DNA of 64,000 nt from Acidimicrobiales bacterium (GCA_041394245.1 JAWKIR010000002.1:1412305-1476304), one strand, 5' to 3'; positions 4,328 to 43,809 are shown, numbered from the stretch's first letter. The notes: generated by a model from the letters alone, not told the origin. Numbers and translations are program-made.

Positions 4328-4388
4328 GCGCCGACCGTAGCCCGGCTGCTACGAATGGCGAACACATCCGTGGCGGACAGAGGAGTCG

Positions 4389-5288: not shown

Positions 5289-5608
5289 GCGTCGAACGCC
5301 AACAGGTCCTCCAGCTCTACACGACGAACTCCTCCTTCGCGAGCCATGTGGTCGCGTGGGCGTTCCACGACGGAACCGACGGCCAAGGGCCGGGCCTCCC
5401 CGACCGAGGCGACTCGCCGCCCTACGTCACCGGACTCGACGCCCTGCGCGACGGCTGGAGACTCCTGCAGATGTCGCAGCTCCTGCCCCCTCGTGAGGGT
5501 GAGCACCACAAGGTGTCGTATCTGCCCTTCGAGTTCCTCCTCGAGCGCGTCGTCGCGGTCGACGAAGCCATCGCGCCGAACGGCGCGCACAATCGCGGCG
5601 TGCACTGA
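5285..5608 (+). CDS. hypothetical protein (107 aa)
   Basis: GTGA overlap with the PhyH stop. Strong G/C third-position bias by eye. No family recognised. Confidence 0.5.
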   Translation: MSVERQQVLQLYTTNSSFASHVVAWAFHDGTDGQGPGLPDRGDSPPYVTGLDALRDGWRLLQMSQLLPPREGEHHKVSYLPFEFLLERVVAVDEAIAPNGAHNRGVH

Positions 5609-5640
5609 GCCGTCGCCTCGTGGCCGTCTCCGTGACACCG

Positions 5641-13898: not shown

Positions 13899-14717
13899 TT
13901 GCAGCCTGACGATGCAGAGCAGGATTCGCGGCTCGGCGACAAGATCATCGCGAACGGAGTCCACCGCTACTTCGGCGGCGCCGGGTCCGAACGGATCCAT
14001 GCGATGGGTCCGGTCGACCTGACGATCCGCGACGGCGAGTTCGTGTGTCTCGTCGGACCATCGGGCTGCGGCAAGTCGACGTTCCTGCGCATGGTCGCCG
14101 GCTTGATCGGACCGAGCGAAGGCTCCGTCGAACTCTCGACCCGCTCCGACACCCAGTCGACGGCGATGGTGTTCCAGGACTATTCGATCTTCCCGTGGAA
14201 GCGGGTGATCGACAACGCCCGCTACGGCCTCGACATCCAGGGCGTGAAGAAGAAGGAAGGCAACGAACGGGCGCTCGCGTACCTCGAGAAGCTGGGGCTC
14301 GGCGAACGGGCCCGGTCGTGGCCGCACACGCTCTCGGGCGGCATGAAGCAGCGGGTGGCCATCGCCCGCGCACTCGCCGTCGAACCACAGATCCTGTTGA
14401 TGGACGAGCCGTTCGCCGCCCTCGATGCCCAGATGCGCCAGATCCTCCAGGACGAGCTCCTCGCCCTCTGGCAGGCAGACCGCCGGACCGTGCTGTTCAT
14501 CACCCACAGTCTCGAAGAGGCCGTGCTTCTCGGCGACCGCGTCCTCGTGATGTCGTCGCGCCCGGGCCGGATCATCGCCGACATCTCGGTGCCGTTCGAG
14601 CGGCCCCGCAGCAACGAGATCCGGGACAGTCCCGAATTCGCGGCGATGACCAGTCAGCTCTGGCGACTCCTGCGCGCCGAAGTCGAGCCCGACCGAGAGG
14701 AGACCGTCGAGCCATGA
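13899..14717 (+). CDS. ABC transporter ATP-binding protein (NitT/TauT nitrate/sulfonate/bicarbonate type)
   Basis: TTG start behind GGAGGGGAGGGGGGG. Walker A GPSGCGKST, signature LSGGMKQR, Walker B LLMDEP. Confidence 0.85.
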   Translation: MQPDDAEQDSRLGDKIIANGVHRYFGGAGSERIHAMGPVDLTIRDGEFVCLVGPSGCGKSTFLRMVAGLIGPSEGSVELSTRSDTQSTAMVFQDYSIFPWKRVIDNARYGLDIQGVKKKEGNERALAYLEKLGLGERARSWPHTLSGGMKQRVAIARALAVEPQILLMDEPFAALDAQMRQILQDELLALWQADRRTVLFITHSLEEAVLLGDRVLVMSSRPGRIIADISVPFERPRSNEIRDSPEFAAMTSQLWRLLRAEVEPDREETVEP

Positions 14718-15610
14718 GCGACGATCCCGTGCAAGCCGCACGCGCCGAACTCACCACCCATTCCCTCGAGCGGGTCGTGCGGGTGCCCTCACCGGCCGAC
14801 CGCGACCCCAACAAGTACCTGCGCCGGCGCCGCATCATCGAGACCACCCTCGCCGTCGCATTCCCGGTGCTGATCCTGACCCTGTGGCAGGTTGCCGCCT
14901 CGGCCGAGTGGATCGACCGCCGCTTCTATCCACCGCCGAGCGACATCGCCGGCGAGATCGGCCGCACCTTCAAGGAGAACCCGAAGGGCAACTGGTGGGT
15001 CGACATCGGGATCAGTGTCCGCCGCATGCTCTGGGGCTACGGCTGGGGTGTGTTCTTCGGCCTCCTGTTCGGCGTCACGATGGGCACGTTCCGCACCCTG
15101 CGGGTCACGCTCGAACCGACGCTCAACGCTCTCTACACCGTGCCGAAGCTCGCCCTCATCGGCATCTTCCTCATCGTGCTCGGATTCGACGACAAGCCGC
15201 TCATCGCCGTCATCGCCGTCACGGTGTTCTTCTTCGTCTGGATCCAGTCGATGGCCGCAGTGCTCGCGGTGTCGGACCAGCTCCAGGAGACGGCGAAGTC
15301 GTTCGGGAGTTCCCGCCTGCAGACGTTCCGCCACGTGATCCTGCCGGCCTCGCTCCCCCAGATCTTCCTCGGCCTGCGGGTGGCGGCCGGGGTGGCGGTG
15401 CTGACCCTCATCGGCGTGGAGTTCGTCTTCTCGCCGGGGCTCCAGGGCATCGGCTATCGGATCAACAACGCCCGCACCGTGCTCGATCCACTCCAGGCCT
15501 ACGTCGGACTCTTCGTCGCCGCGGTCCTCGGGGTGCTGTTCGTCGCGGTGATCCAGTTCCTGTCCAGGTTGGCAACACCCTGGGCATCCAATGACCGATC
15601 CGTCCTGTGA
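14714..15610 (+). CDS. ABC transporter permease (NitT/TauT type)
   Basis: ATGA overlap with the ATPase gene. Multiple TM segments and a binding-protein-dependent permease layout. Confidence 0.8.
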   Translation: MSDDPVQAARAELTTHSLERVVRVPSPADRDPNKYLRRRRIIETTLAVAFPVLILTLWQVAASAEWIDRRFYPPPSDIAGEIGRTFKENPKGNWWVDIGISVRRMLWGYGWGVFFGLLFGVTMGTFRTLRVTLEPTLNALYTVPKLALIGIFLIVLGFDDKPLIAVIAVTVFFFVWIQSMAAVLAVSDQLQETAKSFGSSRLQTFRHVILPASLPQIFLGLRVAAGVAVLTLIGVEFVFSPGLQGIGYRINNARTVLDPLQAYVGLFVAAVLGVLFVAVIQFLSRLATPWASNDRSVL

Positions 15611-32282: not shown

Positions 32283-34394
32283 GTGCGTGTGGCAGCACTC
32301 GACGACGCGGATCGGCTCGCGGCGCTCCAGGACAGCGGCCTCCTCGGTGGTGACCCGCTTCCCGGTCTCGACGGCGTGCTTCGCATCGCTCGCCATGTCA
32401 TGGGCACATCGACGGTCATGTTCACCGCAGTCGACGTCGACCGCCAGGTGTTCGTCGACCACATCGGTCTGAACGAGGCCTGGGCGAGCGCCGGCCAGAC
32501 CCCGCTGTCGCACTCGTACTGTCGCCTGGTCGTCACGGGAGACGCGCCGTTGGTCGTACGCGACGCTCCGAACGACGAACGGGTGCGGAACAACCCGGCG
32601 ACCGCCGAGGCGAGCATCGGCGCCTACCTCGGCGTGCCCGTGCGATCCGTCGACGGCCACATCCTCGGTTCGCTGTGTGCGCTCGACGGCTCCCCCCGCG
32701 CCTGGACGAACGACCAGATCCGCGTCCTGACGGATCTCGCCGGTGCCATCGAGGTCGAACTCACTCTGCGCGACACCACCAGGGAGCTGGCCGACCGACT
32801 GACATCGGAGTCGCTCGAACGGGGGTTCGAGGAGTCGATGACCGCCCTCGCGGCGGCGACGTCGCGATCATGGACCGTCGACGCGGTGGTGCGCTCCATC
32901 GTCGAGAACGCGAAGGCGGCCACCGGCGCCGCGGTGGTCACCGTTGCCCTCCACGAGGACGACACCCTTCGCATCTTCGATGCCCGGGAGCCTGGCACGA
33001 GCGGCGAGGACGGATGGCACACGACCGACATCGACACCCCGTCGCCCATGACCGACGCGGCACGCAACGGGCGGACACTGATCCTCCCGGACCCACCGGC
33101 GATGGCCGAGTGGCCCGAGTTCGCCGACACGATGGCGGACCTCGACCTGCAGTCCTACATCGCGATGCCGGTGGGCACGACCGACAGCGGAGCGAGGGCG
33201 GTCATCGGCGTCGGCTGGACGAGCCCGATGAAGAGCCGCGACATGCCGCGCCCGGTCGCCCGTCTCGCCACACTGGCTCGACACGGGCTCGATCGGGCCC
33301 ACAGCCACGAGACGGCGCGGGTCCATGCCGAACTCCTCGAGACCCTCGTCCTACCCGAGACACTCCCGTCGGTTCCTGATCTCGACATCGCGGGGGTCTA
33401 TCTTCCGCCCTCGGCCGGCCAGCGGGTCGGCGGCGACCTCTACGACGCCGTGACCCGCGACGACGGGCGCATCGCGTTGATCGTCGCCGATGCGGCCGGC
33501 CACGACGTCGTCGGCTCGCTCGTCACCAGCCGGGTGCGCAACGCCTTCACGATGTTGTCCCTCGACCTTCGCAGCCCCGCCCACACGATGCGCGCCATCA
33601 ATCGCTACCTGATGCGCTCGACCATCACGACACACATCACCGCCGTCGTGGCGCTCGTCGATCTCGAAACCGGCACCGTGACCATCGCGAACGCCGGCCA
33701 CCTCCAACCCCGGCTGCGCCGCGCCGACGGGCGGGTCGATCGCGTCGGTCCGGCCGGAGAACCACTGCTCGGCCTCCAGACATTCGACTATCACGAAGCC
33801 GAGGTGCCCTTCGACGAGGGCGACAGACTACTCCTGTTCACCGACGGCCTGATCGAGTGGCGGGACCGACCGCTGACGGCGAGCGAGCAGGCGCTCGACG
33901 ACATGCTCGGCGCCCTCGGCACGGAAGGATCAGCCGCCGCCGTGGATCGCCTCTCGTCGGCGCTGCCCTCACGGGACGACGATCTGGCGCTGATGCTGCT
34001 CACGCGGCGCGCTCCGGCACGCGACCACGGGCTCGAGTTGGAGTGGCCGGCCGCCGAGATCTCGCTCGGCAACGCCCGGTCTCGATTGTCGCGATGGCTG
34101 GACGGTCATCCGCGGCTCGACGACATCGTGTTGATCGCGACCGAGCTCCTCACCAACGCCCGCACGGCCAGCGACCGGCCCGACCGACCGGTGACGCTCC
34201 GCGCCTCCCGAGACGACCACTCGGTGTGCCTACGCGTCACGAACCACGGTCCGGCACTCCCGACGGGGACACCGCCGATGCCCGACGCAGCGAACATCCG
34301 CGGACGAGGCCTCGCAATCGTCGCCGCGGTCGCAGACCTGCGCATCGAGAACGTCGACGGCCAGGTGACGGTCGAGGCCCGTCTGTCCGACTAG
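32283..34394 (+). CDS. multidomain partner-switching regulator: GAF-GAF-PP2C (SpoIIE) phosphatase-RsbW-like HATPase domain
   Basis: Two GAF-like sensor regions. PP2C motifs GGDLYD, ADAAGHD, LFTDGL. C-terminal TELLTNA N-box and GRGLAIVAAVAD G2-like box. Confidence 0.8.
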   Translation: MRVAALDDADRLAALQDSGLLGGDPLPGLDGVLRIARHVMGTSTVMFTAVDVDRQVFVDHIGLNEAWASAGQTPLSHSYCRLVVTGDAPLVVRDAPNDERVRNNPATAEASIGAYLGVPVRSVDGHILGSLCALDGSPRAWTNDQIRVLTDLAGAIEVELTLRDTTRELADRLTSESLERGFEESMTALAAATSRSWTVDAVVRSIVENAKAATGAAVVTVALHEDDTLRIFDAREPGTSGEDGWHTTDIDTPSPMTDAARNGRTLILPDPPAMAEWPEFADTMADLDLQSYIAMPVGTTDSGARAVIGVGWTSPMKSRDMPRPVARLATLARHGLDRAHSHETARVHAELLETLVLPETLPSVPDLDIAGVYLPPSAGQRVGGDLYDAVTRDDGRIALIVADAAGHDVVGSLVTSRVRNAFTMLSLDLRSPAHTMRAINRYLMRSTITTHITAVVALVDLETGTVTIANAGHLQPRLRRADGRVDRVGPAGEPLLGLQTFDYHEAEVPFDEGDRLLLFTDGLIEWRDRPLTASEQALDDMLGALGTEGSAAAVDRLSSALPSRDDDLALMLLTRRAPARDHGLELEWPAAEISLGNARSRLSRWLDGHPRLDDIVLIATELLTNARTASDRPDRPVTLRASRDDHSVCLRVTNHGPALPTGTPPMPDAANIRGRGLAIVAAVADLRIENVDGQVTVEARLSD

Positions 34395-35119
34395 GAGCGG
34401 TACTCGGGATTCTGGTCGGCCGCATTCGTGACGTGTGACCACTCCCCCACCGTGTTTCCCTCGGTCGGGAATCCTCCGCGGTCTCGCAGCATGCGGGCCG
34501 TGTGCATGAGGTTCCACGCCATGACCGTGCAGTTCTTGTTGGTGAACTCGCTGTCGTACCCGGCCGGTGTCGTCTGTCCGTCGATCTCGTCGCCGTAGCT
34601 GGGTCCGGGACCGATAGATCCGAGCCAGCCACAGTCCGCACCAGGAGGAATGACGTAGCCGATGTGTTGCAGGGCGTAGAGCACATCGCGGGCGACGGCC
34701 TTCACACCGTCCTCGTTGCCGGTCACGACACAGCCGGCCGTCTTGCCGTAGTACACGTACTGGCCCCGATCGTTGGTCTCGGCACTGTTCGCATACATCC
34801 GCTCGATCGCGAGCGTCGCCACACTCGACTTCGCTCCCAGCCAGATCGGCGAGCCGACCACCAGAATGTCGGCCGCCTCGATGCGGTCCTGGATCATCGG
34901 CCAGTCGTCGACCGGCGCGCTGTGTTCGGTCATGTCCTTGTCCATGCCGAAGGGGATCCGGTGGTCGAGTGCGTGCACCACCTCGACCGCGACCCCCTCG
35001 GCTTCCATGATCCCGGCCGCCCGCTGCACCAGTCGCATGGTGTGCGACTCGCTCGGGTCGCGTTTCAGCGAGCAGTTGAGGAAGAGGGCGGAGAGGTCGG
35101 AGAATCCCACGTCGGTCAT
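34391..35119 (-). CDS. flavodoxin-like NAD(P)H-dependent FMN reductase family protein
   Basis: Start MTDVGFSD (cat at 35117-19). ..LFLNCSLK.., ..ILVVGSPIWLG.. The stop overlaps the convergent upstream gene by 4 nt. Confidence 0.7.
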   Translation of the reverse strand: MTDVGFSDLSALFLNCSLKRDPSESHTMRLVQRAAGIMEAEGVAVEVVHALDHRIPFGMDKDMTEHSAPVDDWPMIQDRIEAADILVVGSPIWLGAKSSVATLAIERMYANSAETNDRGQYVYYGKTAGCVVTGNEDGVKAVARDVLYALQHIGYVIPPGADCGWLGSIGPGPSYGDEIDGQTTPAGYDSEFTNKNCTVMAWNLMHTARMLRDRGGFPTEGNTVGEWSHVTNAADQNPEYRS

Positions 35120-35128
35120 GGCCGGGCG

Positions 35129-35154
35129 ATACCCACCGACCGGCACCGGCAAAC
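35129..35154 (-). promoter_or_regulatory. SigF/SigB-type promoter candidate (GGTTT-N16-GGGTAT)
   Basis: Minus strand reads CAGGTTT GCCGGTGCCGGTCGGT GGGTAT CGCCCGGCC ATG. The -10 ends 9 nt before the ATG at 35119. Confidence 0.55.
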
Positions 35155-35160
35155 CTGCGG

Positions 35161-35202
35161 TTGCGTCAGGCCGCGATTGCGTCAGGCCACTATCGCGTCA
35201 GG
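35161..35202. repeat. three direct GCGTCAGG repeats with a 16-bp period
   Basis: ttGCGTCAGGcc (35161-72), ttGCGTCAGGcc (35177-88) and tcGCGTCAGG (35193-202). They lie just upstream of the -35 of the promoter candidate and overlap the antiporter stop codon. Confidence 0.6.
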
Positions 35203-36931
35203 AAGGCGCGCGGATGACGATCGCTCGTTCGTTCTCCCCGAGCGCCACCGATCGGCCTGCGAAGTGGACCCGGCCCGCGGCATCGATCACACACACGAGC
35301 TCGGAGTCGTCCTCACCCTCGTCGAGCGGGCCGTCGACGACGACGAGCGAAGCGCCCTGGGCGTAGAGCTCGCTGAGGCGTTCGGCATTGAGATGCTCGG
35401 GCAGGACGAGCCGCGGGTTCACAGTCTGCGTGGTCCCGGGTTCGGAGAGCGTTTCGAGCGCAGCGAGTCCGAAGACGTTGGCCGACCCGATCTCCTCGGC
35501 CAGGCGTTTCGCGCTGAACGCGTCGAGGTGGTCGGTTCCGGAGAGGACCACTCCCGTGCCGACCCCGATCGCAGCGATCGCTTCGTCGAATGCGTGACCG
35601 TCGAGCCTGCCCTGGAACGCGAGCAGACCGAGAGCAGCCGCCCGGTCGGCCTCCTCCTCGTCGAGTCCGAGCAACAGCGTCACCACACCGGCTTCGGTGA
35701 GTCGCTCGGCCAGCTCGATCGCGAACGGACTGCCGCCCACGATCGCCACACCGGAAGGTTCGGGCTTGGCGACCCTCAGTCGACGAGCGACCCCGCGGGC
35801 GAGCACGCTCGTCACGACGACGGTGGTCACGACCACCGTGAACACCGTGGGCACGAGGGGTCCGGGATCGATGCCCTCGTGGTCGAGTTCGATCGCGAAG
35901 AGCGACGCGACGGCCGCGGCGACCACACCGCGGGGCGCCATCACCATCAGGAAGCCCCGATCGGCTCGCCCCAATTGTGTGCCGATGGTAGAAGCCACGA
36001 CGGCCAGGGGGCGGGCGAGAACCATCAGGACAGCGGCGAGCAGGACCGAGGGAATCAGCCCATCGACCACCACGTCGAGGTCGACTCGCGCGCCGAGCAC
36101 GATGAACAGCACACCCAACACCGTGGTGCCGAGGTTCTCGTTGAATTCGGTGATGCGCGCCGCCGGAATGAACTGCTGGTTGGCGAAGGCCATTCCCAGC
36201 AACGTGACGGCCAACAAGCCTGCCTCCGGACGCAGCAGGTTCGCCGTAGCGAACGCGCCGAGCACCGCGGCCAGGGTGAGGGGCACGTGGAGACGGTCGG
36301 CGACGAGGCGACTCCGGAGCGCACCGACCAGCACCAGGGCGACGATCGCACCGACCACCGCACCGGCCCCGAAGGTGCTGAGGAGACGCAGGAGGATCCG
36401 GCCGACCGATCGCTCCTCGACGATCGCGTCGAGCACGCCGATCGCCAGCGAGGCACCGATGGGGTCGATCAGGATGCCTTCCCACTTCAGGACCGATCCG
36501 GCAGGCTCGCGGGGACGAACGACGCGCAGCAGCGGAGCGATCACGGTGGGGCCCGAGACCGTGAGGATGGCGGCCATGAGCACCGCGATGTCGGTGTCGA
36601 CATCGAAGAGCAGCAGCGTGAAGACGGTTCCCACCGCCCACGAGACGGCAACCCCGATCGTGACCAGGCGGAGTACCGGTTGACGCGCCGTCCCGAGGGA
36701 CTTCCAGTGCAACCCCGTCCCACCCTCGAAGAGGAGAATCGCGACTCCGAACGACACTCCGGTGAACAGCAGCTCACCGAAGATCTCGTCCGGGTCCATC
36801 ACTGTTCCCAGGCCCATGCCGGCGACCAGGAGGAACAGCACCGACGGAACCCGGAGTCGGGCACCGAGCATCTGGCATCCGATCGCTGCGCCGGCGATGA
36901 CGGCAACGGCGGTCTGTGGATCGGTGATCAT
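35198..36931 (-). CDS. cation:proton antiporter (CPA1, Na+/H+ exchanger family) with a C-terminal RCK/TrkA-N-like domain
   Basis: About 10-12 TM segments, then ..GVAIVGGSPFAIELAERL.. Rossmann-like cytosolic domain. Confidence 0.8.
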   Translation of the reverse strand: MITDPQTAVAVIAGAAIGCQMLGARLRVPSVLFLLVAGMGLGTVMDPDEIFGELLFTGVSFGVAILLFEGGTGLHWKSLGTARQPVLRLVTIGVAVSWAVGTVFTLLLFDVDTDIAVLMAAILTVSGPTVIAPLLRVVRPREPAGSVLKWEGILIDPIGASLAIGVLDAIVEERSVGRILLRLLSTFGAGAVVGAIVALVLVGALRSRLVADRLHVPLTLAAVLGAFATANLLRPEAGLLAVTLLGMAFANQQFIPAARITEFNENLGTTVLGVLFIVLGARVDLDVVVDGLIPSVLLAAVLMVLARPLAVVASTIGTQLGRADRGFLMVMAPRGVVAAAVASLFAIELDHEGIDPGPLVPTVFTVVVTTVVVTSVLARGVARRLRVAKPEPSGVAIVGGSPFAIELAERLTEAGVVTLLLGLDEEEADRAAALGLLAFQGRLDGHAFDEAIAAIGVGTGVVLSGTDHLDAFSAKRLAEEIGSANVFGLAALETLSEPGTTQTVNPRLVLPEHLNAERLSELYAQGASLVVVDGPLDEGEDDSELVCVIDAAGRVHFAGRSVALGENERAIVIRAPS

Positions 36932-37047
36932 CGAACGCCACCCCTCATCGCCTCGACGGCGAGCCGTCGACGCGCCTGCCGCGAGCGCGGCGCACCCGAT
37001 GAACGGATAGATTTCGCCCGAGCGTCGCGGAGCCCGGAGGACACATC

Positions 37048-37350
37048 GTGGAGATTCAGCCGATCGTGCAGGACGACGGCACCCGTGTCGCGGTGCACGG
37101 CGAAGCCGACGCCGACAATTGCCACGAACTCGGGGCCGCGCTCCTCGACGAGTCGTTGATCGGCCCCGTCCGTCTCGACCTGGCCGGGCTGTCGTTCCTC
37201 GACTCCTCGGCGGTCAGCGAGCTGCTCGGCATCCAGCAGGAGTTGGCGACACGCGGCATCGAACTGTCGATCGTCGAGACCTCGCCGGCCGTGCACCGCG
37301 TCCTCGAGATCACGGGCCTTCTCGACGTTTTCGGCATCGACGCGAGCTGA
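37048..37350 (+). CDS. STAS-domain anti-sigma-factor antagonist (RsbV/SpoIIAA/RsfA-RsfB-like)
   Basis: 100 aa, GTG start. ..LDLAGLSFLDSSAVSELL.. with the conserved Ser position. ..VLEITGL...F. Confidence 0.8.
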   Translation: MEIQPIVQDDGTRVAVHGEADADNCHELGAALLDESLIGPVRLDLAGLSFLDSSAVSELLGIQQELATRGIELSIVETSPAVHRVLEITGLLDVFGIDAS

Positions 37351-37357
37351 ACGCAAC

Positions 37358-38140
37358 TCAGCCCCGCCCGAGGCCCGTTGTGCCCGGCCCGATCTGCTCA
37401 CGGAGCGTCTCGAGCGAGCGTCGGATCAGGCGGCTCACGTGCATCTGGCTCACGCCGACCCGTTCGGCGATCTCCGATTGCGTGAGCGATCCTGCGAAGC
37501 GCAGCTCGAGAATCTCGCGTTCACGCGGCGGAAGGGTCTCGAGCAGACCACTGATCGCCATCTTGGTGTCGAACCGATCCACGTCGACATCGGTCGTCGT
37601 GAGAGCGGGTGGTGTCGCGCGGGGCGCCTCGTCGGCCGATGATGCCGCACTGTCGATGCTCGACGCCCGATAGGACCGCTGCACGTCGAGGGCCTCGAGT
37701 ACCGCGTCGGTGTCGAGTCCGGTCTCGGCGGCGATCTGATCCACGGTCGGTGACGCGCCGAGCCTGAGCGCCAGTTCGTCGACGACGGCGCGCACATGGA
37801 GCGATCGCTCCTGCAGCGACCGCGGAACGTGCACGGACCACGTGGCGTCGCGAAAGTAGCGCTTGAGCTCCCCGTCGATGGTCCGACCGGCGAAGGTGGA
37901 GAACTGCACGCCGATCGACGGGTCGAACCGGTCGACTGCCTTGACGAGTGCGAGCATCGCCACCTGACGGAGATCAGCGCTTTCGGCGCCACGGTCTCGG
38001 TAGCGAGCGGCGAAGTACTCGGCCAGCGGCACGAACGACTCGACGATCGCGTTGCGATTCGTCTCGCTCGGATCGGCGGCGAACGCCTCGAAGAGCCGGT
38101 CGCGATCCGAGGCGTTCGCCCCGGGTCGCTCAGACGGCAT
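37358..38140 (-). CDS. RNA polymerase sigma factor, SigB/SigF/SigG subfamily
   Basis: Start MPSERPG (cat at 38138-40). DLRQVAMLALVKAVDRFD, WSVHVPRSLQE, LTQSEIAERVGVSQMHVSRLIRRSL. Closely parallels M. tuberculosis SigF as I remember it. Confidence 0.9.
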   Translation of the reverse strand: MPSERPGANASDRDRLFEAFAADPSETNRNAIVESFVPLAEYFAARYRDRGAESADLRQVAMLALVKAVDRFDPSIGVQFSTFAGRTIDGELKRYFRDATWSVHVPRSLQERSLHVRAVVDELALRLGASPTVDQIAAETGLDTDAVLEALDVQRSYRASSIDSAASSADEAPRATPPALTTTDVDVDRFDTKMAISGLLETLPPREREILELRFAGSLTQSEIAERVGVSQMHVSRLIRRSLETLREQIGPGTTGLGRG

Positions 38141-38522
38141 CGACAGCGGCCTTGGCCTTCGACAGACGAATACGACGCCGTCCGCTCTCGGACTCGTCCA
38201 GCTGGAAGTCATCGACCGTCGCACCGAGGATCGCTTCGACGAGATCGTCGACACCGACCGGCGCGAGCGCCTCACCGGTGCGCACGCCGACGATCTCGAC
38301 CACGCCGTCGGACGCGTCGAGCGTCAACGTGACCTCGCCGCCGACCTCGTCGTCGGCCAGAAGCCAGGTGAGCGCCTCGGTGACGGCGAGACGGAGATCA
38401 TCGAGCTCCTCGACGTCGAACCCGGCCGCTGCGCCGACCGCGGCGGCATTCAACCGACCGACGACGAGATACCCCGGGCGAGCGGGAAACCCGATCCTGA
38501 GTTGATCGATCTCATTGGGCAC
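38130..38522 (-). CDS. anti-sigma factor, UsfX/RsbW-like with a degenerate HATPase fold
   Basis: GTG start behind GGAAGAGGA. Overlaps the sigma gene by 11 nt. DLRLAVTEALTWLL corresponds to the UsfX DLRLAVDEVCTRLI region. No DxGxG or G2 box seen. Confidence 0.65.
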   Translation of the reverse strand: MPNEIDQLRIGFPARPGYLVVGRLNAAAVGAAAGFDVEELDDLRLAVTEALTWLLADDEVGGEVTLTLDASDGVVEIVGVRTGEALAPVGVDDLVEAILGATVDDFQLDESESGRRRIRLSKAKAAVDAV

Positions 38523-38536
38523 AGCGTGTCCTCTTC

Positions 38537-38563
38537 CTGTGACGCGTCTTGCTGTGACGCGTC
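38537..38563. promoter_or_regulatory. two copies of CTGTGACGCGTC, each containing the 8-bp palindrome GACGCGTC
   Basis: 38537-48 and 38552-63, 15-bp period. They sit 15-41 nt upstream of the anti-sigma GTG. Confidence 0.4.
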
Positions 38564-38606
38564 GCCGGCACGAGGCGAAGCCTACGCGCCGGCGCGGTCC
38601 ATGGGC

Positions 38607-38750
38607 TCACGTGAAGACACTCACACCGCCGGGACCCACGAGCAGGCCGACGATGATCAGCACGGCACCGTAGGTGAACTGCTTGCGCACGACGGCGACG
38701 ATTCCGGAAACGACGAGGATGACGGCGAGGAGCCAGAGGAGAAACGACAT
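38607..38750 (-). CDS. small membrane protein (47 aa, GPGG motif)
   Basis: MSFLLWLLAVILVVSGIVAVVRKQFTYGAVLIIVGLLVGPGGVSVFT gives two TM helices. ATG behind AGGAATATCCC. Confidence 0.55.
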   Translation of the reverse strand: MSFLLWLLAVILVVSGIVAVVRKQFTYGAVLIIVGLLVGPGGVSVFT

Positions 38751-38798
38751 GGGATATTCCTGCTTTCTTGTGGTTGGTTCTTTGTGATGCTGGAAGGG

Positions 38799-38824
38799 GT
38801 ACCCGGAGCGCGGAGGTCCGAAAC
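38799..38824 (-). promoter_or_regulatory. SigF/SigB-type promoter candidate (GGGTTT-N16-GGGTAC)
   Basis: Minus strand reads CGGGTTT CGGACCTCCGCGCTCC GGGTAC, 48 nt upstream of the small-membrane-protein ATG. Confidence 0.55.
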
Positions 38825-38829
38825 CCGGT

Positions 38830-39273
38830 TCAATCGGCCCGTGCTTCGGCCATGCCGGCCCGGTAGGCGGTGGCGAGCGCCTGCTTCTCGATGTCGTCGA
38901 GCGCCTTTCCCGCCAGCTGGAACACCTCTTGTTCCTCCTCCCGGAGGTGATGCAGGAGGCGGTGCTCGAGCTCACGGGCGGTCACCAGGAACTGGGGTGC
39001 CGACATGTCGTAGCCGTCGAGCTGCTCGATGAAGTCCTCGAGTTCCTTGTGCTCGGCAACACTGTGACGCGCCATCTCCTGCGTCAGATCGTCACCCATC
39101 AGCGGCACGTAGAACTGACGTTCCTCGTGCACCGCGTGAGCGGACAACTCGTCCTTGAGTTCCTCGAACGAGGCCTCCCGGGCCTCGCTCGCGCCGGTTG
39201 TGTCGAGGAGCTCCCCGATCAGCCGACGCTGCCGTTCGTGGTCCTCGCGAAGCGCTTCGAAGATCGTCATCAT
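38830..39273 (-). CDS. hemerythrin HHE cation-binding domain protein
   Basis: Start MMTIFEAL behind AAGGA. ..REDHERQR.., ..HAVHEERQFY.., ..VAEHKELE.., ..LEHRLLHHLREEE.. His/Glu ligand pattern. Confidence 0.8.
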   Translation of the reverse strand: MMTIFEALREDHERQRRLIGELLDTTGASEAREASFEELKDELSAHAVHEERQFYVPLMGDDLTQEMARHSVAEHKELEDFIEQLDGYDMSAPQFLVTARELEHRLLHHLREEEQEVFQLAGKALDDIEKQALATAYRAGMAEARAD

Positions 39274-39339
39274 CTCGTGTCCTTTCAGGATTCCGACGTC
39301 TCGCCGTGGGCCGACGTCGTGGGCGGTGAGGGAGCGGAC

Positions 39340-39364
39340 GTACCCGACCGCGTCGGGTTCAAAC
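39340..39364 (-). promoter_or_regulatory. SigF/SigB-type promoter candidate (GGGTTT-N15-GGGTAC)
   Basis: Minus strand reads GGGGTTT GAACCCGACGCGGTC GGGTAC, 66 nt upstream of the hemerythrin ATG. Confidence 0.55.
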
Positions 39365-39397
39365 CCCCGTGTGGCCGATTGCGGGAGCATGCGCATC

Positions 39398-39423
39398 GTT
39401 TAGCTGCACGCGACGGCGGGTAT
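39398..39423 (+). promoter_or_regulatory. SigF/SigB-type promoter candidate (GTTT-N16-GGGTAT)
   Basis: ATCGTTT AGCTGCACGCGACGGC GGGTAT, 32 nt upstream of the ATG at 39456 (RBS AGGAGA). Confidence 0.6.
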
Positions 39424-39455
39424 GCCCGACGCGAACCCACACACAGGAGAACCCC

Positions 39456-39863
39456 ATGGGCGCCATCCGCAAGGCCTTGTCGATCACGACCCTCGGAGTC
39501 GTGAACTGGCGAAGCAAATCCGAACTGCTCGAGATCGAGCGTGCTGCGCTGGACGAGACGAGCGAGAAGCTCGCCGAGCAGCAGGCGAAGGCAGAACGCC
39601 TCGGCCGGCGGGCGAGGAAGGCCGAGAAGAGGGCCCGCAAGGCCGAGCTGAACGAGCTGAAGACCGCAAGGTCCGCCCGCCGCCGACGCCGCTTCCTGCG
39701 CCGCAAGCAGAAGGTGGCCCTCGCCGCGAAGGGCGCAACCGCGGATGCGAGCGCCGCCGCTTCCGCTCAGTCCCGACGCGCCCGTCGCAAGCTCCGCCGA
39801 GCGGAGAAGAAGGCTCGGTCGCAGGTCGACGCCGTCACCGACGCAGTCCACGACCTCGCCTGA
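39456..39863 (+). CDS. hypothetical Lys/Arg-rich coiled-coil-like protein (135 aa)
   Basis: ATG behind AGGAGA. ..AERLGRRARKAEKRARKAELNELKTARSARRRRRFLRRKQK... No family recognised. Confidence 0.55.
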   Translation: MGAIRKALSITTLGVVNWRSKSELLEIERAALDETSEKLAEQQAKAERLGRRARKAEKRARKAELNELKTARSARRRRRFLRRKQKVALAAKGATADASAAASAQSRRARRKLRRAEKKARSQVDAVTDAVHDLA

Positions 39864-39904
39864 GGTCTCTCACCAGGTCCTGTCACCGCCTGGCGAGCCG
39901 GCCG

Positions 39905-41335
39905 CTACGGTCCGATCATTCCGCGTTCGTCGGGGGCGAGCAGCCCCGTCGGCACGTCGGGATCCTCGAACGGCAGCGCGGGGCGGGAGTACTCGACCGT
40001 CCCGAGTGCCATGGTGAACAAGTCGACGGCGTCGCGCAGCACCGCTTCGTCGATGCCGTGCCGATCGGCGACGAGGTCGACCAGCTCCTCGCCCGATGCG
40101 CGGGCGTCACGTTGGGCGACGGCAGCGGCGTCGTAGCCGATCAGCGGCGCCAAGGCCGTCACGATCGCCTGTGATCCCTCTGCGAGCGCACGACACCGCT
40201 CGAGGTGGGGCACGACCTTCGCCACCACCTTCTCTGCGAGCATGTCGGCTGCTGCGGTCAGCAGATCCAGCGAGTCGAGCAGGTCGTGCACGATGAGCGG
40301 CAGGTAGGTGTTGAGTTCGAGCGCGCCGCGCGATCCGGCGTGGGTGATCCCAGCGTCGTTGCCGATGACTCGGGCGACGATCTGGTTCACCACCTCGGGA
40401 ATCACCGGGTTGACCTTGCCCGGCATGATCGACGACCCGGGTTGCAACTCCGGCAGCTCGATCTCGCCGAGACCGGCGGTCGGACCGCTCGCCATCAGCC
40501 GGAGATCGTTGGCGATCTTGTCGAGGGAACACGCGACGGTCTTCGCCCGTCCGGAGAGATCGACCAGGTCGTCGTGCGCTCCCTGGAGGGCGAAGTGGTT
40601 CGGACAGGGGGTCAGGTCGAGGCCGGTGGACACGGCGAGTTCGTGGATCGCCCGTTCGGCGTAGCCGGGCGGCGCATTGAGGCCGTTGCCGACCGCGGTC
40701 CCACCGAGCGGGAGCCGCCCCAGGTTCGCCATGAGCGAGTCGATCCGGGAGCGACCGTCGACCACCTGTTGGCGGTAGCCACCGAACTCCTGGCCGAGCG
40801 TGATCGGCACCGCGTCCTGCATGTGGGTGCGACCGACCTTCACGACGTGCCGGCTGTTGACCTCGTGCAACCCGAGCTCCCGCTCGAGCCGGGCGAGCGC
40901 GGACACGAGACGGTTCGCCGCCTCGAGCACTGCTATCCGGCTGCCGCTCGGCATCACGTCGTTGCTCGACTGCCCCAGATTCACATGATCGATCGGGTGA
41001 ACCGGGGTTCCGTCGAGGAGCTGTTCCGCCCGTGCCGCGACCACCTCGTTGACGTTCATGTGGGTCGATGTCGCCGAACCGGTCTGAAACACGTCGACGA
41101 CGAACTGGTCGTCCCATGCGCCGGTGCGGATCTCCTCACAGGCCGTGGCGATCGCCTCGGCGATCGGGCTCGGCAACCGTTCGGGCACCAGGTCGCACAG
41201 CACGCCGGCCGCCGCCGCCTTGATCCTCGCGACGGCGTGGACGACGGGGAGCGGGAACACGACACCGGACGCGTCGAAGTTCTCCACCGCCAGGCGGGTG
41301 TGCTCGCCGTAGAGGGGGACGCTGGGAGTCGTCAT
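39905..41335 (-). CDS. aspA: aspartate ammonia-lyase (class II fumarase/aspartase family)
   Basis: Start MTTPSVPLYGEH (cat at 41333-35). Signature GSSIMPGKVNPVIPEVVNQ is aspartase-type rather than the fumarase PTQCEA type. ATGA overlap with the upstream gene. Confidence 0.75.
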   Translation of the reverse strand: MTTPSVPLYGEHTRLAVENFDASGVVFPLPVVHAVARIKAAAAGVLCDLVPERLPSPIAEAIATACEEIRTGAWDDQFVVDVFQTGSATSTHMNVNEVVAARAEQLLDGTPVHPIDHVNLGQSSNDVMPSGSRIAVLEAANRLVSALARLERELGLHEVNSRHVVKVGRTHMQDAVPITLGQEFGGYRQQVVDGRSRIDSLMANLGRLPLGGTAVGNGLNAPPGYAERAIHELAVSTGLDLTPCPNHFALQGAHDDLVDLSGRAKTVACSLDKIANDLRLMASGPTAGLGEIELPELQPGSSIMPGKVNPVIPEVVNQIVARVIGNDAGITHAGSRGALELNTYLPLIVHDLLDSLDLLTAAADMLAEKVVAKVVPHLERCRALAEGSQAIVTALAPLIGYDAAAVAQRDARASGEELVDLVADRHGIDEAVLRDAVDLFTMALGTVEYSRPALPFEDPDVPTGLLAPDERGMIGP

Positions 41336-42747
41336 CCTCCGTCCTCGCCGAACGTCCGGTCTCTGGATGTTGCGGGGAACCGACCTGACCAGGGCGTCTC
41401 TGTCGTCCAGTCGGGCTGCACATCGGCATGCGCTCCATCGATGATCGCCCGACCGTCGACGAGGTCGACCAGCGGCGCGACCACGGGATCCGGACCCGAC
41501 CGCACACCGGCCGGGTCGGCCAACGCGTCCGGGAAGAAGGCGAGGAGTCCGTCGACGACACCCTGGATCTGGCCGGCGAGCCCGCACCGGGCACCTTCGA
41601 CCACCCTGGCCGACGAGACCTGGAGGGATTCGGCGACCGCGGGCAGGCGTTCGGCGCCGCTCCTGGCCGCGTCCAGGTGACCGGCGATCGCCAGACCCTC
41701 GGTCTTGCAGGGCAGGCACTGTCCGCAGCTCTCGACCGACAGGAACGAGGCGGCTGCCCGCGCGATCGCAACCGGATGGGTCCCCTTCGCGAAGACCCGG
41801 ATCGCCGCCGCGCCGATCGGCAGCGACGTCTCGGCGTCGGGTTGTGGGACCATCGGTCTGTCGAGGTGACCGGCCGGGATCAGCGGATACGACACGCCGT
41901 TGAGCACGGCCGCGGCATCATCGGCGCCGTCGCCGACCACGTCGCGCAACGAGGTGCCGACCGGGAACTCCTCGACTCCGGCGACAGGAACGTCGCCGCT
42001 GACGGTGGCGAGAAAGGTCGCCACCGGCCATTCGGGACGATCCGCACCGTGATACCGGATCACGTGAGCGACACGAGCAAGCGTTTCGACATTGTGGACG
42101 AGCGCGGGCGGCGGCAGGGTCCCCTCGTCGAACGGCGCAGCCATCGCAGTCGACGCGGGCGATCCCGTCCCGTCCATGTCGAGCGCGCCATGTCGCCATG
42201 GTGGTCCGATACGAGGGAAGGGCTGATGGCCGACGACCACCTCGAGCAGCGCAGACTCCTCGCCGAACAGGTACCGGTCGGGCCCGTAGACGAACACCAC
42301 CTCGGCAATGCGCTCGGTCGCCAACGCCTGCACCTCCGCTACCGCCGACTTCAGTCGGGCGACCTCGGTCGCGAAGCTCTCCTTCGTCGCGATGACGATG
42401 GTGTCGGCCCCGACGGCGCGGGCGGCGATGACCGCTCCCTCGACGACCGAATAGGGGTCCCGGCGTATCAGCATTCGATCCTTGAACGAACCGGGCTCGC
42501 CCTCGGCCGCGTTCACGACCAGCGACGGCGCCGCCTCCACGGATCGGAAGCGGTTCGTCGTCCGCCACTTCGTCGCGACCGGGAACCACGCTCCCCCGCG
42601 GCCACGAAGACCGGCCTCGTCGATGACGTCGATCGTCGCTTCGGCGCCGAGGAGGGACGCTGCGAGGATCGCGTCGCCGGCTCGGGCTCGCAGGTGATGC
42701 GAGTACGACGCGACAGGGGCGGGCGGCAGCACGGAGTTCGGGTCCAT
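41332..42747 (-). CDS. NuoF-like (complex I 51-kDa subunit family) FMN/NADH/4Fe-4S protein, stand-alone
   Basis: GLRGRGGAWFPVATKW, NAAEGEPGSFKDR, YLFGEESALLE, ESCGQCLPCK. Start MDPNSV at 42747 (alternative 42777). Confidence 0.7.
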   Translation of the reverse strand: MDPNSVLPPAPVASYSHHLRARAGDAILAASLLGAEATIDVIDEAGLRGRGGAWFPVATKWRTTNRFRSVEAAPSLVVNAAEGEPGSFKDRMLIRRDPYSVVEGAVIAARAVGADTIVIATKESFATEVARLKSAVAEVQALATERIAEVVFVYGPDRYLFGEESALLEVVVGHQPFPRIGPPWRHGALDMDGTGSPASTAMAAPFDEGTLPPPALVHNVETLARVAHVIRYHGADRPEWPVATFLATVSGDVPVAGVEEFPVGTSLRDVVGDGADDAAAVLNGVSYPLIPAGHLDRPMVPQPDAETSLPIGAAAIRVFAKGTHPVAIARAAASFLSVESCGQCLPCKTEGLAIAGHLDAARSGAERLPAVAESLQVSSARVVEGARCGLAGQIQGVVDGLLAFFPDALADPAGVRSGPDPVVAPLVDLVDGRAIIDGAHADVQPDWTTETPWSGRFPATSRDRTFGEDGG

Positions 42748-42756
42748 GGCGCCGCC

Positions 42757-42782
42757 GTACCCCTGCGCCACGCCCATCAAAC
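42757..42782 (-). promoter_or_regulatory. SigF/SigB-type promoter candidate (GTTT-N16-GGGTAC)
   Basis: Minus strand reads CATGTTT GATGGGCGTGGCGCAG GGGTAC GGCGGCGCC ATG. The -10 ends 9 nt before the ATG at 42747. Confidence 0.5.
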
Positions 42783-42790
42783 ATGGCGGT

Positions 42791-42816
42791 GTTTGGCACG
42801 ACCGGTCGGCGGGTAG
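42791..42816 (+). promoter_or_regulatory. SigF/SigB-type promoter candidate (GTTT-N16-GGGTAG)
   Basis: GGTGTTT GGCACGACCGGTCGGC GGGTAG, 34 nt upstream of the ATG at 42851. Its -35 is back to back with the divergent -35. Confidence 0.5.
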
Positions 42817-42850: not shown

Positions 42851-43303
42851 ATGACACCGCACCCGACCGACTCGAGCCCACTCGACCCCACCTTCGCGAG
42901 AGGATCGGACACTCTCGTCACGGTGCTCGCCAGCGCCGCGGCCGCGGGGTACGCGACCGCCATGACGGTGTCTCCCGGTGCCGTGATGGTTTGCGGCAAC
43001 TGTGCCGAGCACGCTGCTGCGCGTGCCGTTTCCGTCGACCGCTACCGGCGTCTGGAAGGCGCCAGCGACGCAGCTGATCTCATGCTCGTCGCCTTGGTTC
43101 GCTGTCCTCACTGCGAGATCGGCGGCACGCTCACCTTCGGCTACGGGCCGAACTCGGGAGTCGACGACGACGATTTCCTGTCGGAACTGGATCTGGGCGA
43201 CGCAACGCAACGGGCTGACGGGTTTGTCGCCGACCACGAGGCCGCCGACCACGAGAGGGCCGGTCTCCGGGACCCGGACCACGCCCAAGGAGGAACGACG
43301 TGA
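42851..43303 (+). CDS. hypothetical Zn-ribbon protein (CxxC...CxxC)
   Basis: ATG behind GGAG. VCGNCAEH ... RCPHCEIG, 37 residues apart. Acidic C-terminus. GTGA overlap with the following USP gene. Confidence 0.55.
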   Translation: MTPHPTDSSPLDPTFARGSDTLVTVLASAAAAGYATAMTVSPGAVMVCGNCAEHAAARAVSVDRYRRLEGASDAADLMLVALVRCPHCEIGGTLTFGYGPNSGVDDDDFLSELDLGDATQRADGFVADHEAADHERAGLRDPDHAQGGTT

Positions 43304-43809
43304 AGATTCTGCTGGCAGTCGACGACAGTGCGACGAGCTACGAAGCAGCGCTCGTCGTCTCACAATGGTTCGGCGACGACGCGTCGATCGTGGCACTGCA
43401 CGTCGGCACCGTCACGCCGACACTCTCGTCGACGGAGCATCTGGCCGTCGGCGGGTCCGGCTACCCCGTGTTCGCGCTTCCCGCGCTGCGAGAACGCATG
43501 ACGGAGATCACGCGCGCGGCCCGTGAGGTCGCAGCTCGCGCCGCCAACCTCACGGACGGTTCGGTCCGCACGGAGCAGGGGGATCCGGCCGACGTCATCG
43601 TCGCGGTCGCGGCCGAGATAGATGCCGACCTCATCGTGGTCGGCACCGGAGATCGATCGTGGCTCTCCCGCCTGCTCAACCCGTCGGTGAGCTCGACCGT
43701 GGCCGAGAAGGCGCCGTGCTCGGTCCTCGTCGTCCGGTCCGGCGCACTGGGTGAATCGACACTGGGTGAATCGACACTGGGGGAATCGACAGTGGGGGAA
43801 CCGACATGA
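43300..43809 (+). CDS. universal stress protein (UspA family) with a C-terminal LGEST repeat
   Basis: MKILLAVDDS.., ..ADLIVVGT.., ..VAEKAPCSVLVV... Ends in ALGESTLGESTLGESTVGEPT. Confidence 0.8.
   Translation: MKILLAVDDSATSYEAALVVSQWFGDDASIVALHVGTVTPTLSSTEHLAVGGSGYPVFALPALRERMTEITRAAREVAARAANLTDGSVRTEQGDPADVIVAVAAEIDADLIVVGTGDRSWLSRLLNPSVSSTVAEKAPCSVLVVRSGALGESTLGESTLGESTVGEPT
43747..43806 (+). repeat. 15-bp tandem repeat x4 at the 3' end of the USP gene
   Basis: CTGGGTGAATCGACA, CTGGGTGAATCGACA, CTGGGGGAATCGACA, GTGGGGGAACCGACA. The last unit supplies the A of the next gene's ATG. Confidence 0.9.

Follow-up and report, generated by a model that had tools for sequence, protein, structure and literature searches.

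A stand-alone NuoF-like gene coupled to a fumarase-family lyase gene in a predicted general-stress operon of an Acidimicrobiales bacterium

We analysed a 64-kb stretch of DNA from an Acidimicrobiales bacterium (GCA_041394245.1; hereafter the window; G+C approximately 68%), in which a gene for a NuoF-like protein is followed, head to tail on the minus strand, by a gene for a lyase of the fumarase/aspartase superfamily (Table 1). The two genes form a bicistronic operon in which the start of the second lies inside the stop codon of the first. This anatomy, which we assign with high confidence, agrees with the original prediction made for this DNA: each of the NuoF motifs quoted there for a protein of approximately 471 residues is present (GRGGAWFP, NAAEGEPGSFKDR, YLFGEESALLE, and ESCGQCLPCK), and the TGA of the NuoF-like gene does overlap the ATG of the lyase gene (ATGA), consistent with translational coupling. 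We considered and rejected the GGAGG in front of the lyase ATG as a Shine-Dalgarno sequence: its spacing to the start is zero, and the other five loci with this arrangement have no equivalent. Because the GGAGG abuts the start, and because no Shine-Dalgarno site is conserved at the lyase start across the overlap loci (the window and the related loci L081, L083, L084, L092, and L093), the lyase is most likely translated by ribosomes that finish the NuoF-like gene and reinitiate.

The NuoF-like protein is also stand-alone, as had been proposed: no complex I, hydrogenase, or formate dehydrogenase partner gene is present among the called genes that were scanned, a set that spans 17-53308, where the scan ended, and has its gaps mainly in the lower half. 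Likewise, neither these genes nor 13 related gene-called loci contain NuoE, NuoG, or another Fe-S partner (nuo, hox, fds, or hyd).

The protein matches PF01512 (Complex1_51K; 119 bits) and PF10589 (NADH_4Fe-4S; 34 bits), and misses the NuoF equivalog cut-offs (TIGR01959/NF010120 among them; 157 versus 558.65 bits for TIGR01959, with 137 versus 389 and 105 versus 749 bits for other models). Its AlphaFold2 model (predicted local distance difference test (pLDDT) 81, predicted template modelling score (pTM) 0.84) compares with Aquifex NuoF chains at TM-scores of 0.70 to 0.79 in Foldseek. The order of domains is a flavin mononucleotide (FMN)/NADH domain, a reduced SLBB-like beta-grasp domain, a 4Fe-4S four-helix domain, and a family-specific C-terminal region of approximately 65 residues. 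The subclade to which the window protein belongs lacks the WFR..GT..SPGT lead-in of the SLBB domain, and an insert of approximately 25 residues, which follows PPWRHG, lies within a segment (160-211) that is modelled at low confidence.

Across 26 family members, the Gly-rich loop, NAAEGEPGSFKDR (NADEGEPG in canonical NuoF), Y-x-x-GEE, PP(W/Y/F), and NVET are common, together with ESCGQCxPC plus the fourth Cys and a C-terminal domain with QPDW...SG..PA. At position 54, Trp is invariant in the 9 subclade members and Gly is found in the other 20 family members of the alignment (canonical GRGGAGF). F55, K60, E84, Y159, E163/E164, W184, and the four cysteines are kept; G54 is changed to Trp, D81 to Ala, the Lys of PRxKPP to Gly, and the Phe of KWSF to Thr. 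With residue roles that we assume from Thermus thermophilus Nqo1, the NADH-stacking or NADH-binding residues F70, K75, E97, E184/E185, and F205 are retained in the family, and F78, K202, and D94 are replaced. Cofactor binding is probable, though not certain.

Database relatives number approximately 4,100 at E <= 1e-10 among the candidates scored, true NuoF included; the closest are 50% to 58% identical, and the named ones come from Acidimicrobiia-type metagenome genomes. The protein is a member of a large, uncharacterised stand-alone family. A scan of genome contigs with the family alignment used the generic patterns ESCGQCxPC and LRGRGGA[GW]F, and its matches were dominated by true NuoF genes; at L001-L007, the only family members among them, there is no lyase neighbour.

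The second protein matches PF00206 (Lyase_1; 279 bits) and PF10415 (FumaraseC_C; 37 bits) and has at least 8,000 database relatives at E <= 1e-30. It had been called an aspartate ammonia-lyase, an assignment that does not hold up well. Among PDB sequence matches, mycobacterial class II fumarases (368 to 380 bits) rank above aspartases (281 to 295 bits), and the supposedly aspartase-type motif GSSIMPGKVNPVIPEVVNQ, while present, is not diagnostic, as Mycobacterium fumarases carry GSSIMPGKVNPVLPE. All of the 50 best fold matches of the AlphaFold2 model (pLDDT 88) are fumarase-type; 48 are deposited as fumarases, and the other two are chains of a Brucella entry named 'fumarate lyase:delta crystallin'. 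Fumarases of M. tuberculosis, M. ulcerans, and M. abscessus match with TM-scores of 0.86 to 0.93 at 45% to 47% identity.

Scores against hidden Markov models (HMMs) fall below the cut-off for both enzymes, at 404 bits for fumC (TIGR00979; cut-off 664.75) and 369.5 bits for aspA (TIGR00839; cut-off 681.2); the NCBI-named actinobacterial fumarases P0214 (560 bits) and P0138 (523 bits) are likewise under the fumC cut-off. The best-scoring NCBIfam model, NF008909, is named 'aspartate ammonia-lyase', a name that we rejected as evidence for an aspartase given that the same model is the top, above-cut-off match of P0214 and P0138, both NCBI-named class II fumarate hydratases. A nitrosuccinate lyase/CreD-type role was rejected as well (52 bits versus a 650-bit cut-off).

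The lyase belongs to a small group of its own. Its database relatives show a score step, with ten proteins at 528 to 684 bits (55% to 69% identity) followed by thousands at approximately 440 bits. Outside this clade, all of the nearest relatives with a name from their source are called class II fumarate hydratase, and the homologue in L081 is named by NCBI only as 'lyase family protein'. In a neighbour-joining tree, 11 lyases form one separate clade with two subclades, one coupled to NuoF-like genes and the other represented by L094.

The SS-loop signature is invariant in the alignments except for G306 and V308; GSSxMPxKxN is common to fumarases and aspartases and hence does not discriminate between them. 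The other invariant catalytic or substrate positions are T89, S123/S124/N125, T170/H171, S301/S302, K307, N309, and E314, which we take to correspond to T100, S139/S140/N141, T187/H188, S318, K324, N326, and E331 of E. coli fumarase. Position 92 is occupied by His throughout the clade (11 members) and by Asn in the 8 remaining fumarase-type sequences of the alignment, the L085 lyase included. Compared with canonical fumarases, the clade further has GNG for GTG (GTAVGTG) and LELN for FELN, and misses approximately 20 N-terminal residues. The C-terminal extension of approximately 30 residues noted at the outset is real: it is kept in 11 of 11 clade members and absent from canonical fumarases, and is modelled at low to moderate confidence.

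These comparisons identify the lyase as a divergent paralogue of actinobacterial class II fumarase with putative specificity. We give fumarase activity a little less than an even chance, consider another C4-dicarboxylate substrate a serious if somewhat lesser possibility, and regard aspartase activity as improbable. Since the lyase is of fumarase lineage, the idea of a NuoF-aspartase module is weakened.

The pairing also exists outside this genome, a point on which the original prediction had made itself dependent. Pairs with a 4-nt overlap recur in L081, L083, L084, L092, and L093, with identities to the window of 55% to 57% for the NuoF-like protein and 62% to 69% for the lyase; the overlap reads GTGA in L083 and ATGA in the window and the other four. 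All six loci have the divergent Usp operon beside the pair, and the genes downstream of the lyase vary by lineage: DUF1206 in L081, Usp in L083, and an amino-acid permease in L092 and L093. When the count starts from the NuoF-like gene, which avoids ascertainment through the lyase, the pair is coupled at 4 of the 6 subclade loci; when it starts from the lyase, this holds for 6 of the 7 clade members with genomic context.

The permease genes are convergent to the lyase (L092 9143-10390 and L093 5697-6872) and provide the only hint of an amino-acid connection. In L095, the lyase's place is taken by an open reading frame (ORF) of 119 residues (2583-2942; acidic/basic-rich, no Pfam match) that overlaps the NuoF-like stop by 4 nt.

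In the wider family (31% to 46% identity), neighbours vary and there is no constant partner. A metagenome scan with the subclade alignment listed only main-clade relatives of 37% to 45% identity and serves as a background set only. Fumarase-type neighbours do reappear at some loci. L085 is the sister of the window subclade, and there a canonical-type fumarase gene is divergently transcribed (L085/L086). Two loci of the scan have fumarase-type neighbours as well, divergent in L101 and co-directional with a 54-bp gap in L110; both lyases are of canonical type, and the NuoF-like proteins of both loci come from a separate branch that carries a fused hemerythrin-like domain. By our rough estimate, which assumes approximately 8 neighbouring genes of approximately 3000, some 0.2 such adjacencies would occur by chance in 80 loci. 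Judging from these gene orders, fumarase-type genes became neighbours of the NuoF-like family more than once, in other orientations and with another fumarase lineage, which argues for a functional tie beyond common ancestry of one arrangement.

The stress promoter that had been placed before the operon also has a clear sequence counterpart. A SigF/SigB-type motif, GTTTGATGGGCGTGGCGCAGGGGTA, precedes the NuoF-like gene; its first base, 42782, is the upper end of the segment originally delimited. The motif lies 10 to 11 nt upstream of the orthologous ATG in L081, L082, L083, L084, and L085/L086 and at matching spacing before the NuoF-like gene of L095, so that its position is kept in seven related loci (L081-L086, L095). 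In M. smegmatis, the experimentally derived SigF consensus is GTTT-N(14-19)-GGGTA; in many genes of the regulon, which has a hemerythrin among its members, 8 to 11 nt separate the motif from the start codon (PMC4694148). The motif in the window fits this consensus, including the short distance to the start codon. From this spacing, the NuoF-like-lyase mRNA is predicted to be leaderless or nearly so, and the operon is predicted to depend on a SigF-type sigma factor. A second, divergent motif begins 8 nt away, making this a predicted bidirectional stress promoter region; the divergent motif is also seen in L083, L084, and L095.

Pattern searching for GTTT-N14-18-GGGTA gave 6 copies in the window versus 0.1 expected by chance. 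All six, with spacers of 15 or 16 nt, lie within 7.7 kb (35130-42815), each directly upstream of a gene. The window also encodes a partner-switching set: a sigma factor, an anti-sigma kinase-like ORF (a weak match), a STAS protein, and a PP2C protein. The last, with GAF, PP2C, and HATPase_c_2 domains, is likely the input phosphatase/kinase of a partner-switching cascade that controls the neighbouring sigma factor. The operon sits in an island of SigF-motif genes beside a partner-switching sigma-factor module. Among the other island genes, the FMN reductase is the most conserved neighbour shared with L081 (76% identity to 14195-14890), and a possible membrane peptide of 47 residues, MSFLLWLLAVILVVSGIVAVV...GPGGVSVFT (38607-38750, minus strand), lies just downstream of one of the motifs.

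Table 1. Features of the operon and its surroundings in the 64-kb window.
Feature	Coordinates	Strand	Basis or remark
NuoF-like gene	41332-42747	minus	ORF call; ATG at 42747, TGA 41334-41332, 471 aa
Gly-rich loop GRGGAWF, residues 49-55	42583-42603	minus	alignment
CxxCxxC (C341, C344, C347), N3-type [4Fe-4S] site	41707-41727	minus	invariant in 26 family members; PF10589 match
Fourth cluster ligand C388	41584-41586	minus	alignment
ATGA overlap, NuoF-like stop/lyase start	41332-41335	minus	4 shared bases
Lyase gene	39905-41335	minus	ORF call; ATG at 41335, stop 39907-39905, 476 aa
His92 codon	41060-41062	minus	replaces Asn of GSGT-S-N-MN, three residues past substrate-binding Thr
SS-loop signature GSSIMPGKVNP, residues 300-310	40406-40438	minus	alignments
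Lyase C-terminal tail, residues 446-476	39908-40000	minus	core P-x-(L/V)-P-(F/G)-E-(D/K); mostly also G-x-(I/V)-G-P
SigF/SigB-type promoter motif, GTTT-N16-GGGTA	42758-42782	minus	ends 10 nt before NuoF-like ATG
SigF-type motif	42791-42815	plus	serves divergent operon (4-Cys protein, Usp, baeRF-like); back-to-back with 42758-42782
4-Cys small protein, 150 aa	42851-43303	plus	no Pfam family; first gene of divergent operon
Usp	43300-43809	plus	Pfam; divergent operon
baeRF-family-3-like protein, 345 aa	43806-44843	plus	22.9 bits, below cut-off; release-factor-like; divergent operon
Basic coiled-coil-like ORF, 135 aa	39456-39863	plus	very rich in Lys/Arg/Ala, no Pfam match; between lyase and hemerythrin genes
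SigF-type motif	39398-39422	plus	own motif of the 135-aa basic coiled-coil-like ORF
SigF-type motif	39341-39364	minus	gene downstream: hemerythrin
Hemerythrin-domain protein	38830-39267	minus	PF01814, 56 bits; own SigF-type motif 39341-39364
SigF-type motif	38800-38824	minus	gene downstream: possible 47-aa membrane peptide
Anti-sigma kinase-like ORF, candidate	38130-38522	minus	weak HATPase_c_2 match
Group-3 sigma factor, sigma regions 2-4	37358-38275	minus	Pfam
STAS protein	37048-37350	plus	named solely from homologue (L081 PF01740)
Na+/H+ antiporter	35198-36931	minus	named solely from homologue (L090 Na_H_Exchanger)
SigF-type motif	35130	minus	gene downstream: FMN reductase
FMN reductase (FMN_red family)	34391-35152	minus	Pfam; SigF-type motif in front
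GAF-SpoIIE(PP2C)-HATPase_c_2 three-domain protein	32283-34394	plus	Pfam

The divergent operon has homologues in L081-L084 and L092-L094. Its first product carries the pattern CxxC...YRRLEGASDAADMMLV..CPxC..GYGPNAG with four conserved cysteines and may be a zinc-ribbon or rubredoxin-like partner; speculatively, it could bind metal as one more member of the system. Homologues are encoded beside Usp, usually together with a baeRF-like gene, in L081, L083-L085, and L092-L094, and near a NuoF-like gene in L003. The baeRF-like gene, with homologues of 49% to 55% identity in L081, L082, and L094, appears to be co-transcribed with Usp.

A link between the NuoF-like family and hemerythrin is seen in both gene neighbourhoods and fusions. 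The hemerythrin gene of the window lies approximately 640 bp beyond the lyase stop, and L081 has one 5.8 kb downstream. Four family members (P0098, P0251, P0264, and P0243) have a C-terminal hemerythrin domain above the Pfam cut-off, and fusions are spread over several 50%-identity clusters. The L110 protein (3992-5944) aligns with P0098 (L087 3219-5171) over its full length; that of L101 (approximately 3995-5990; approximately 665 residues) has a C-terminal extension that resembles a hemerythrin domain by eye. P0260 and P0262, of similar length, group with the fusions in the tree and have extensions without a Pfam match. The fusion proteins are approximately 650 residues long, and 2 of the 3 fusion genes with genomic context adjoin a canonical-type class II fumarase gene. 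Searching a library of 1.8 billion proteins with the family-specific C-terminal 65 residues gave 28 weak matches, too few for a family count, and revealed further hemerythrin fusions. The C-terminal position would put the di-iron domain next to the cluster-holding helical domain, which fits either electron delivery to the di-iron site or protection of the cluster. Hemerythrin is accordingly listed here as a candidate partner of the NuoF-like protein, in the role of either electron acceptor or protector.

Some traces of the locus (39846-40760) are present in environmental data. The window sequence is found at approximately 7x depth in a wastewater metagenome (run X1), where the peak in coverage at 40204-40470 resembles cross-mapping to the SS-loop region, which is conserved. 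In two wastewater metatranscriptomes from the same study, the 3' part of the lyase gene is matched identically by three short contigs and the NuoF-like gene by none, a yield too thin for judging co-transcription.

How might the pair work? The reading that we prefer, and to which we give about even chances, is that of a general-stress operon encoding an iron-free fumarase paralogue together with a soluble FMN/[4Fe-4S] protein that oxidises NADH, probably in the service of a di-iron hemerythrin. Under general stress, an alternative sigma factor would direct transcription of a leaderless bicistronic mRNA, and ribosomes ending the first gene would reinitiate on the second, so that both proteins are made together. 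The NuoF-like protein would oxidise NADH at FMN and send electrons one at a time through its cluster to an acceptor in solution, for which the likeliest candidate is the co-regulated di-iron protein of hemerythrin type, found as a fusion to the family in sister clades. In this way O2, peroxide, or NO could be reduced, or metal centres could be kept in their reduced state. The lyase would provide an iron-free fumarate/malate step, or a closely related C4-dicarboxylate step, in the same stress, with a tie to the NADH pool via malate dehydrogenase. That the two proteins have a specific metabolic link, as opposed to sharing an operon, is a more doubtful proposition, which we hold only tentatively.

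Several observations weigh against this reading. Overlaps of 4 nt are frequent in high-GC operons and are no proof of joint function. The changes at the nucleotide site of the subclade (Gly to Trp, NADE to NAAE, and loss of the Lys of PRxKPP) mean that NADH use, and even FMN binding, is not certain, and with the clade-specific changes beside the catalytic residues of the lyase, its substrate may be neither malate nor aspartate. L082 has a NuoF-like gene of the subclade without the lyase, and the L094 lyase and L095 NuoF-like gene are on separate contigs from the same sequencing run. Among the wider-family metagenome matches listed, a fumarase-type gene is found within 4 kb at only 2 of 80 loci, and the SigF-type motif is absent from 72 of 75 loci. 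The metatranscriptome contigs, which reach only the 3' part of the lyase gene, could represent DNA carry-over. Lastly, the role of hemerythrin could be to shield the cluster and not to take up its electrons; protection has been reported as a function of C. jejuni hemerythrins, as noted in PMC4660385.

The best-surviving alternative, unlikely in our view while still deserving weight, is that the two genes are independent neighbours in a general-stress regulon, the NuoF-like protein working with hemerythrin or other partners and the lyase acting as a fumarase in times of stress. The island is indeed a mosaic of SigF-motif genes (Usp, hemerythrin, FMN reductase, and baeRF-like) whose order changes from locus to locus, the two genes do not adjoin in L082 and L094/L095, and lyases of the second subclade keep the C-terminal tail without an adjacent NuoF-like gene. 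Mere co-regulation, however, does not readily account for a 4-nt overlap that is kept at 55% to 69% protein identity despite changing downstream genes, nor for the emergence of fumarase-type neighbours at least 2 more times, in other orientations and with a different fumarase lineage, against the 0.2 estimated for chance.

A more ambitious version of the general-stress reading, and one that we think has a small chance of being right, would unite the NuoF-like protein, hemerythrin, and lyase in one undescribed soluble stress system of Acidimicrobiia, with electrons running from NADH via FMN and [4Fe-4S] to the di-iron site and with physical or metabolic coupling to a neofunctionalised fumarase-family enzyme; taken to its limit, this version has an NADH-linked C4-dicarboxylate reaction performed by a NuoF-lyase complex.

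The scheme first put forward for this locus, in which aspartate is converted to fumarate and ammonia, fumarate acts as electron sink, and the NuoF-like protein re-oxidises NADH in hypoxia, is improbable. Its operon and its stress promoter motif are real, the convergent permeases of L092 and L093 would suit it, and the active-site changes of the clade leave room for an altered substrate. The clade also has GRTH(L/M)QDAVP, of which we take LQDAVP to resemble the aspartases of Bacillus and E. coli; the subclade without a NuoF neighbour, however, has Arg rather than Gln in GRTHL(Q/R)DA, and the fumarase-type GQSSND is kept, with SSND in place of the STND of aspartases. Sequence, fold ranking, and HMM scores (404 for fumC versus 369.5 for aspA) are all nearer to fumarases. 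Moreover, no fumarate reductase gene is present among the scanned genes of the window (17-53308, with gaps), and nothing at the locus links it to hypoxia specifically.

Still less probable is a physical complex in which a lyase tetramer docks NuoF-like subunits, for instance via the C-terminal tail, and NADH oxidation is coupled to a C4-dicarboxylate reaction, such as that of a soluble NADH:fumarate reductase-type enzyme. Translational coupling would favour matched amounts of both proteins, both sides have clade-specific changes (Trp54 and the trimmed SLBB lead-in; His92 and the tail), and adjacency recurs in several arrangements. The tail, however, is also present on lyases that have no NuoF-like gene beside them, the lyase fold contains no redox cofactor, and to our knowledge the FMN site of NuoF serves only hydride transfer from NADH and non-specific acceptors. 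Finally, that the NuoF-like protein is a sensor, reporting the NADH/NAD+ ratio or oxidant damage via its cluster to the partner-switching cascade or the lyase, is very improbable: the protein adjoins the sigma module, has an altered nucleotide site, and belongs to a family with fusions to hemerythrin domains, which are O2/redox sensors in other proteins (PMC4660385), but it lacks any domain for output or DNA binding, most family members have no regulator beside them, and the family-wide catalytic-type motifs (GEE and four Cys) fit electron transfer.

Both proteins are in known superfamilies, each in an unstudied subgroup. The initial impression that a NuoF-lyase module had not been described is borne out by a full-text literature search, which gave no such description. 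The same kind of search returned only hydrogenase, Nfn, and Fdh modules for stand-alone NuoF-like proteins, and only mycobacterial papers for SigF-type stress in Acidimicrobiia. NuoF is normally the electron-input subunit of large complexes, and here a large NuoF-like family appears to act as a single free subunit. The predicted stress regulon, the recurrent hemerythrin fusion, and the recurrent fumarase-type linkage provide three handles on its function. If these links are functional, they would point to a new soluble NADH-driven route for redox defence or redox balancing in actinobacteria of soil, water, and wastewater, which are abundant but poorly known, and to a new functional subgroup in the fumarase/aspartase superfamily. 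If the links are only regulatory, the locus would still provide a first clear outline of a general-stress island of SigF type for Acidimicrobiia-type bacteria.

Compared to NuoF/Nqo1/NDUFV1 of complex I, and likewise HoxF, FdsB, HydB, and NfnB, the NuoF-like protein has the same fold and both Pfam domains, and keeps the Gly-rich loop, GEE, the aromatic residue of PPF/W, and CxxCxxC...C. It differs in being far under the equivalog cut-off, in its insert of approximately 25 residues and its extra C-terminal 65 or so, in NAAE for NADE and, in the subclade, GRGGAW for GRGGAG, and in that its gene is monocistronic or lyase-paired with a predicted stress promoter. With the mycobacterial SigF regulon, the island shares the promoter consensus and its distance to the start codon, genes for hemerythrin, Usp-type proteins, and oxidoreductases, and partner-switching regulators (PMC4694148). 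The window, however, is from a different class (Acidimicrobiia-type), its sigma dependence is a prediction from sequence alone, and the words 'NADH' and 'fumarate' are absent from the main text of the M. smegmatis regulon paper (PMC4694148).

For the lyase, the best sequence and fold matches are M. tuberculosis Rv1098c and actinobacterial FumC, with which it has the motif GSSIMPGKVNPV(L/I)PE in common. The SS loop and the Thr, SSND, Thr-His, Lys, Asn, and Glu positions of Rv1098c are kept, but the lyase belongs to a separate clade of 11 members that is approximately 20 N-terminal residues shorter and has His92, GNG, LELN, and the 30-residue tail. E. coli AspA and Bacillus AspB are of the same superfamily and fold and have the same SS-loop signature; the lyase is, however, less similar to them than to fumarases, and no aspartase is among its 50 best fold matches. 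A further parallel is with class II fumarase genes under stress or iron control, such as E. coli fumC (SoxRS) and the Pseudomonas fagA-fumC-orfX-sodA cluster (PMC3377617, and references there). The regulator in the window is of SigF/SigB type (predicted) rather than SoxS or Fur, the partner is an Fe-S flavoprotein rather than superoxide dismutase, and the lyase is a diverged paralogue of putative activity. As in those systems (PMC3377617), an iron-free fumarase-type gene falls under a (predicted) stress regulon and would share its transcript with a (putative) redox-defence gene.

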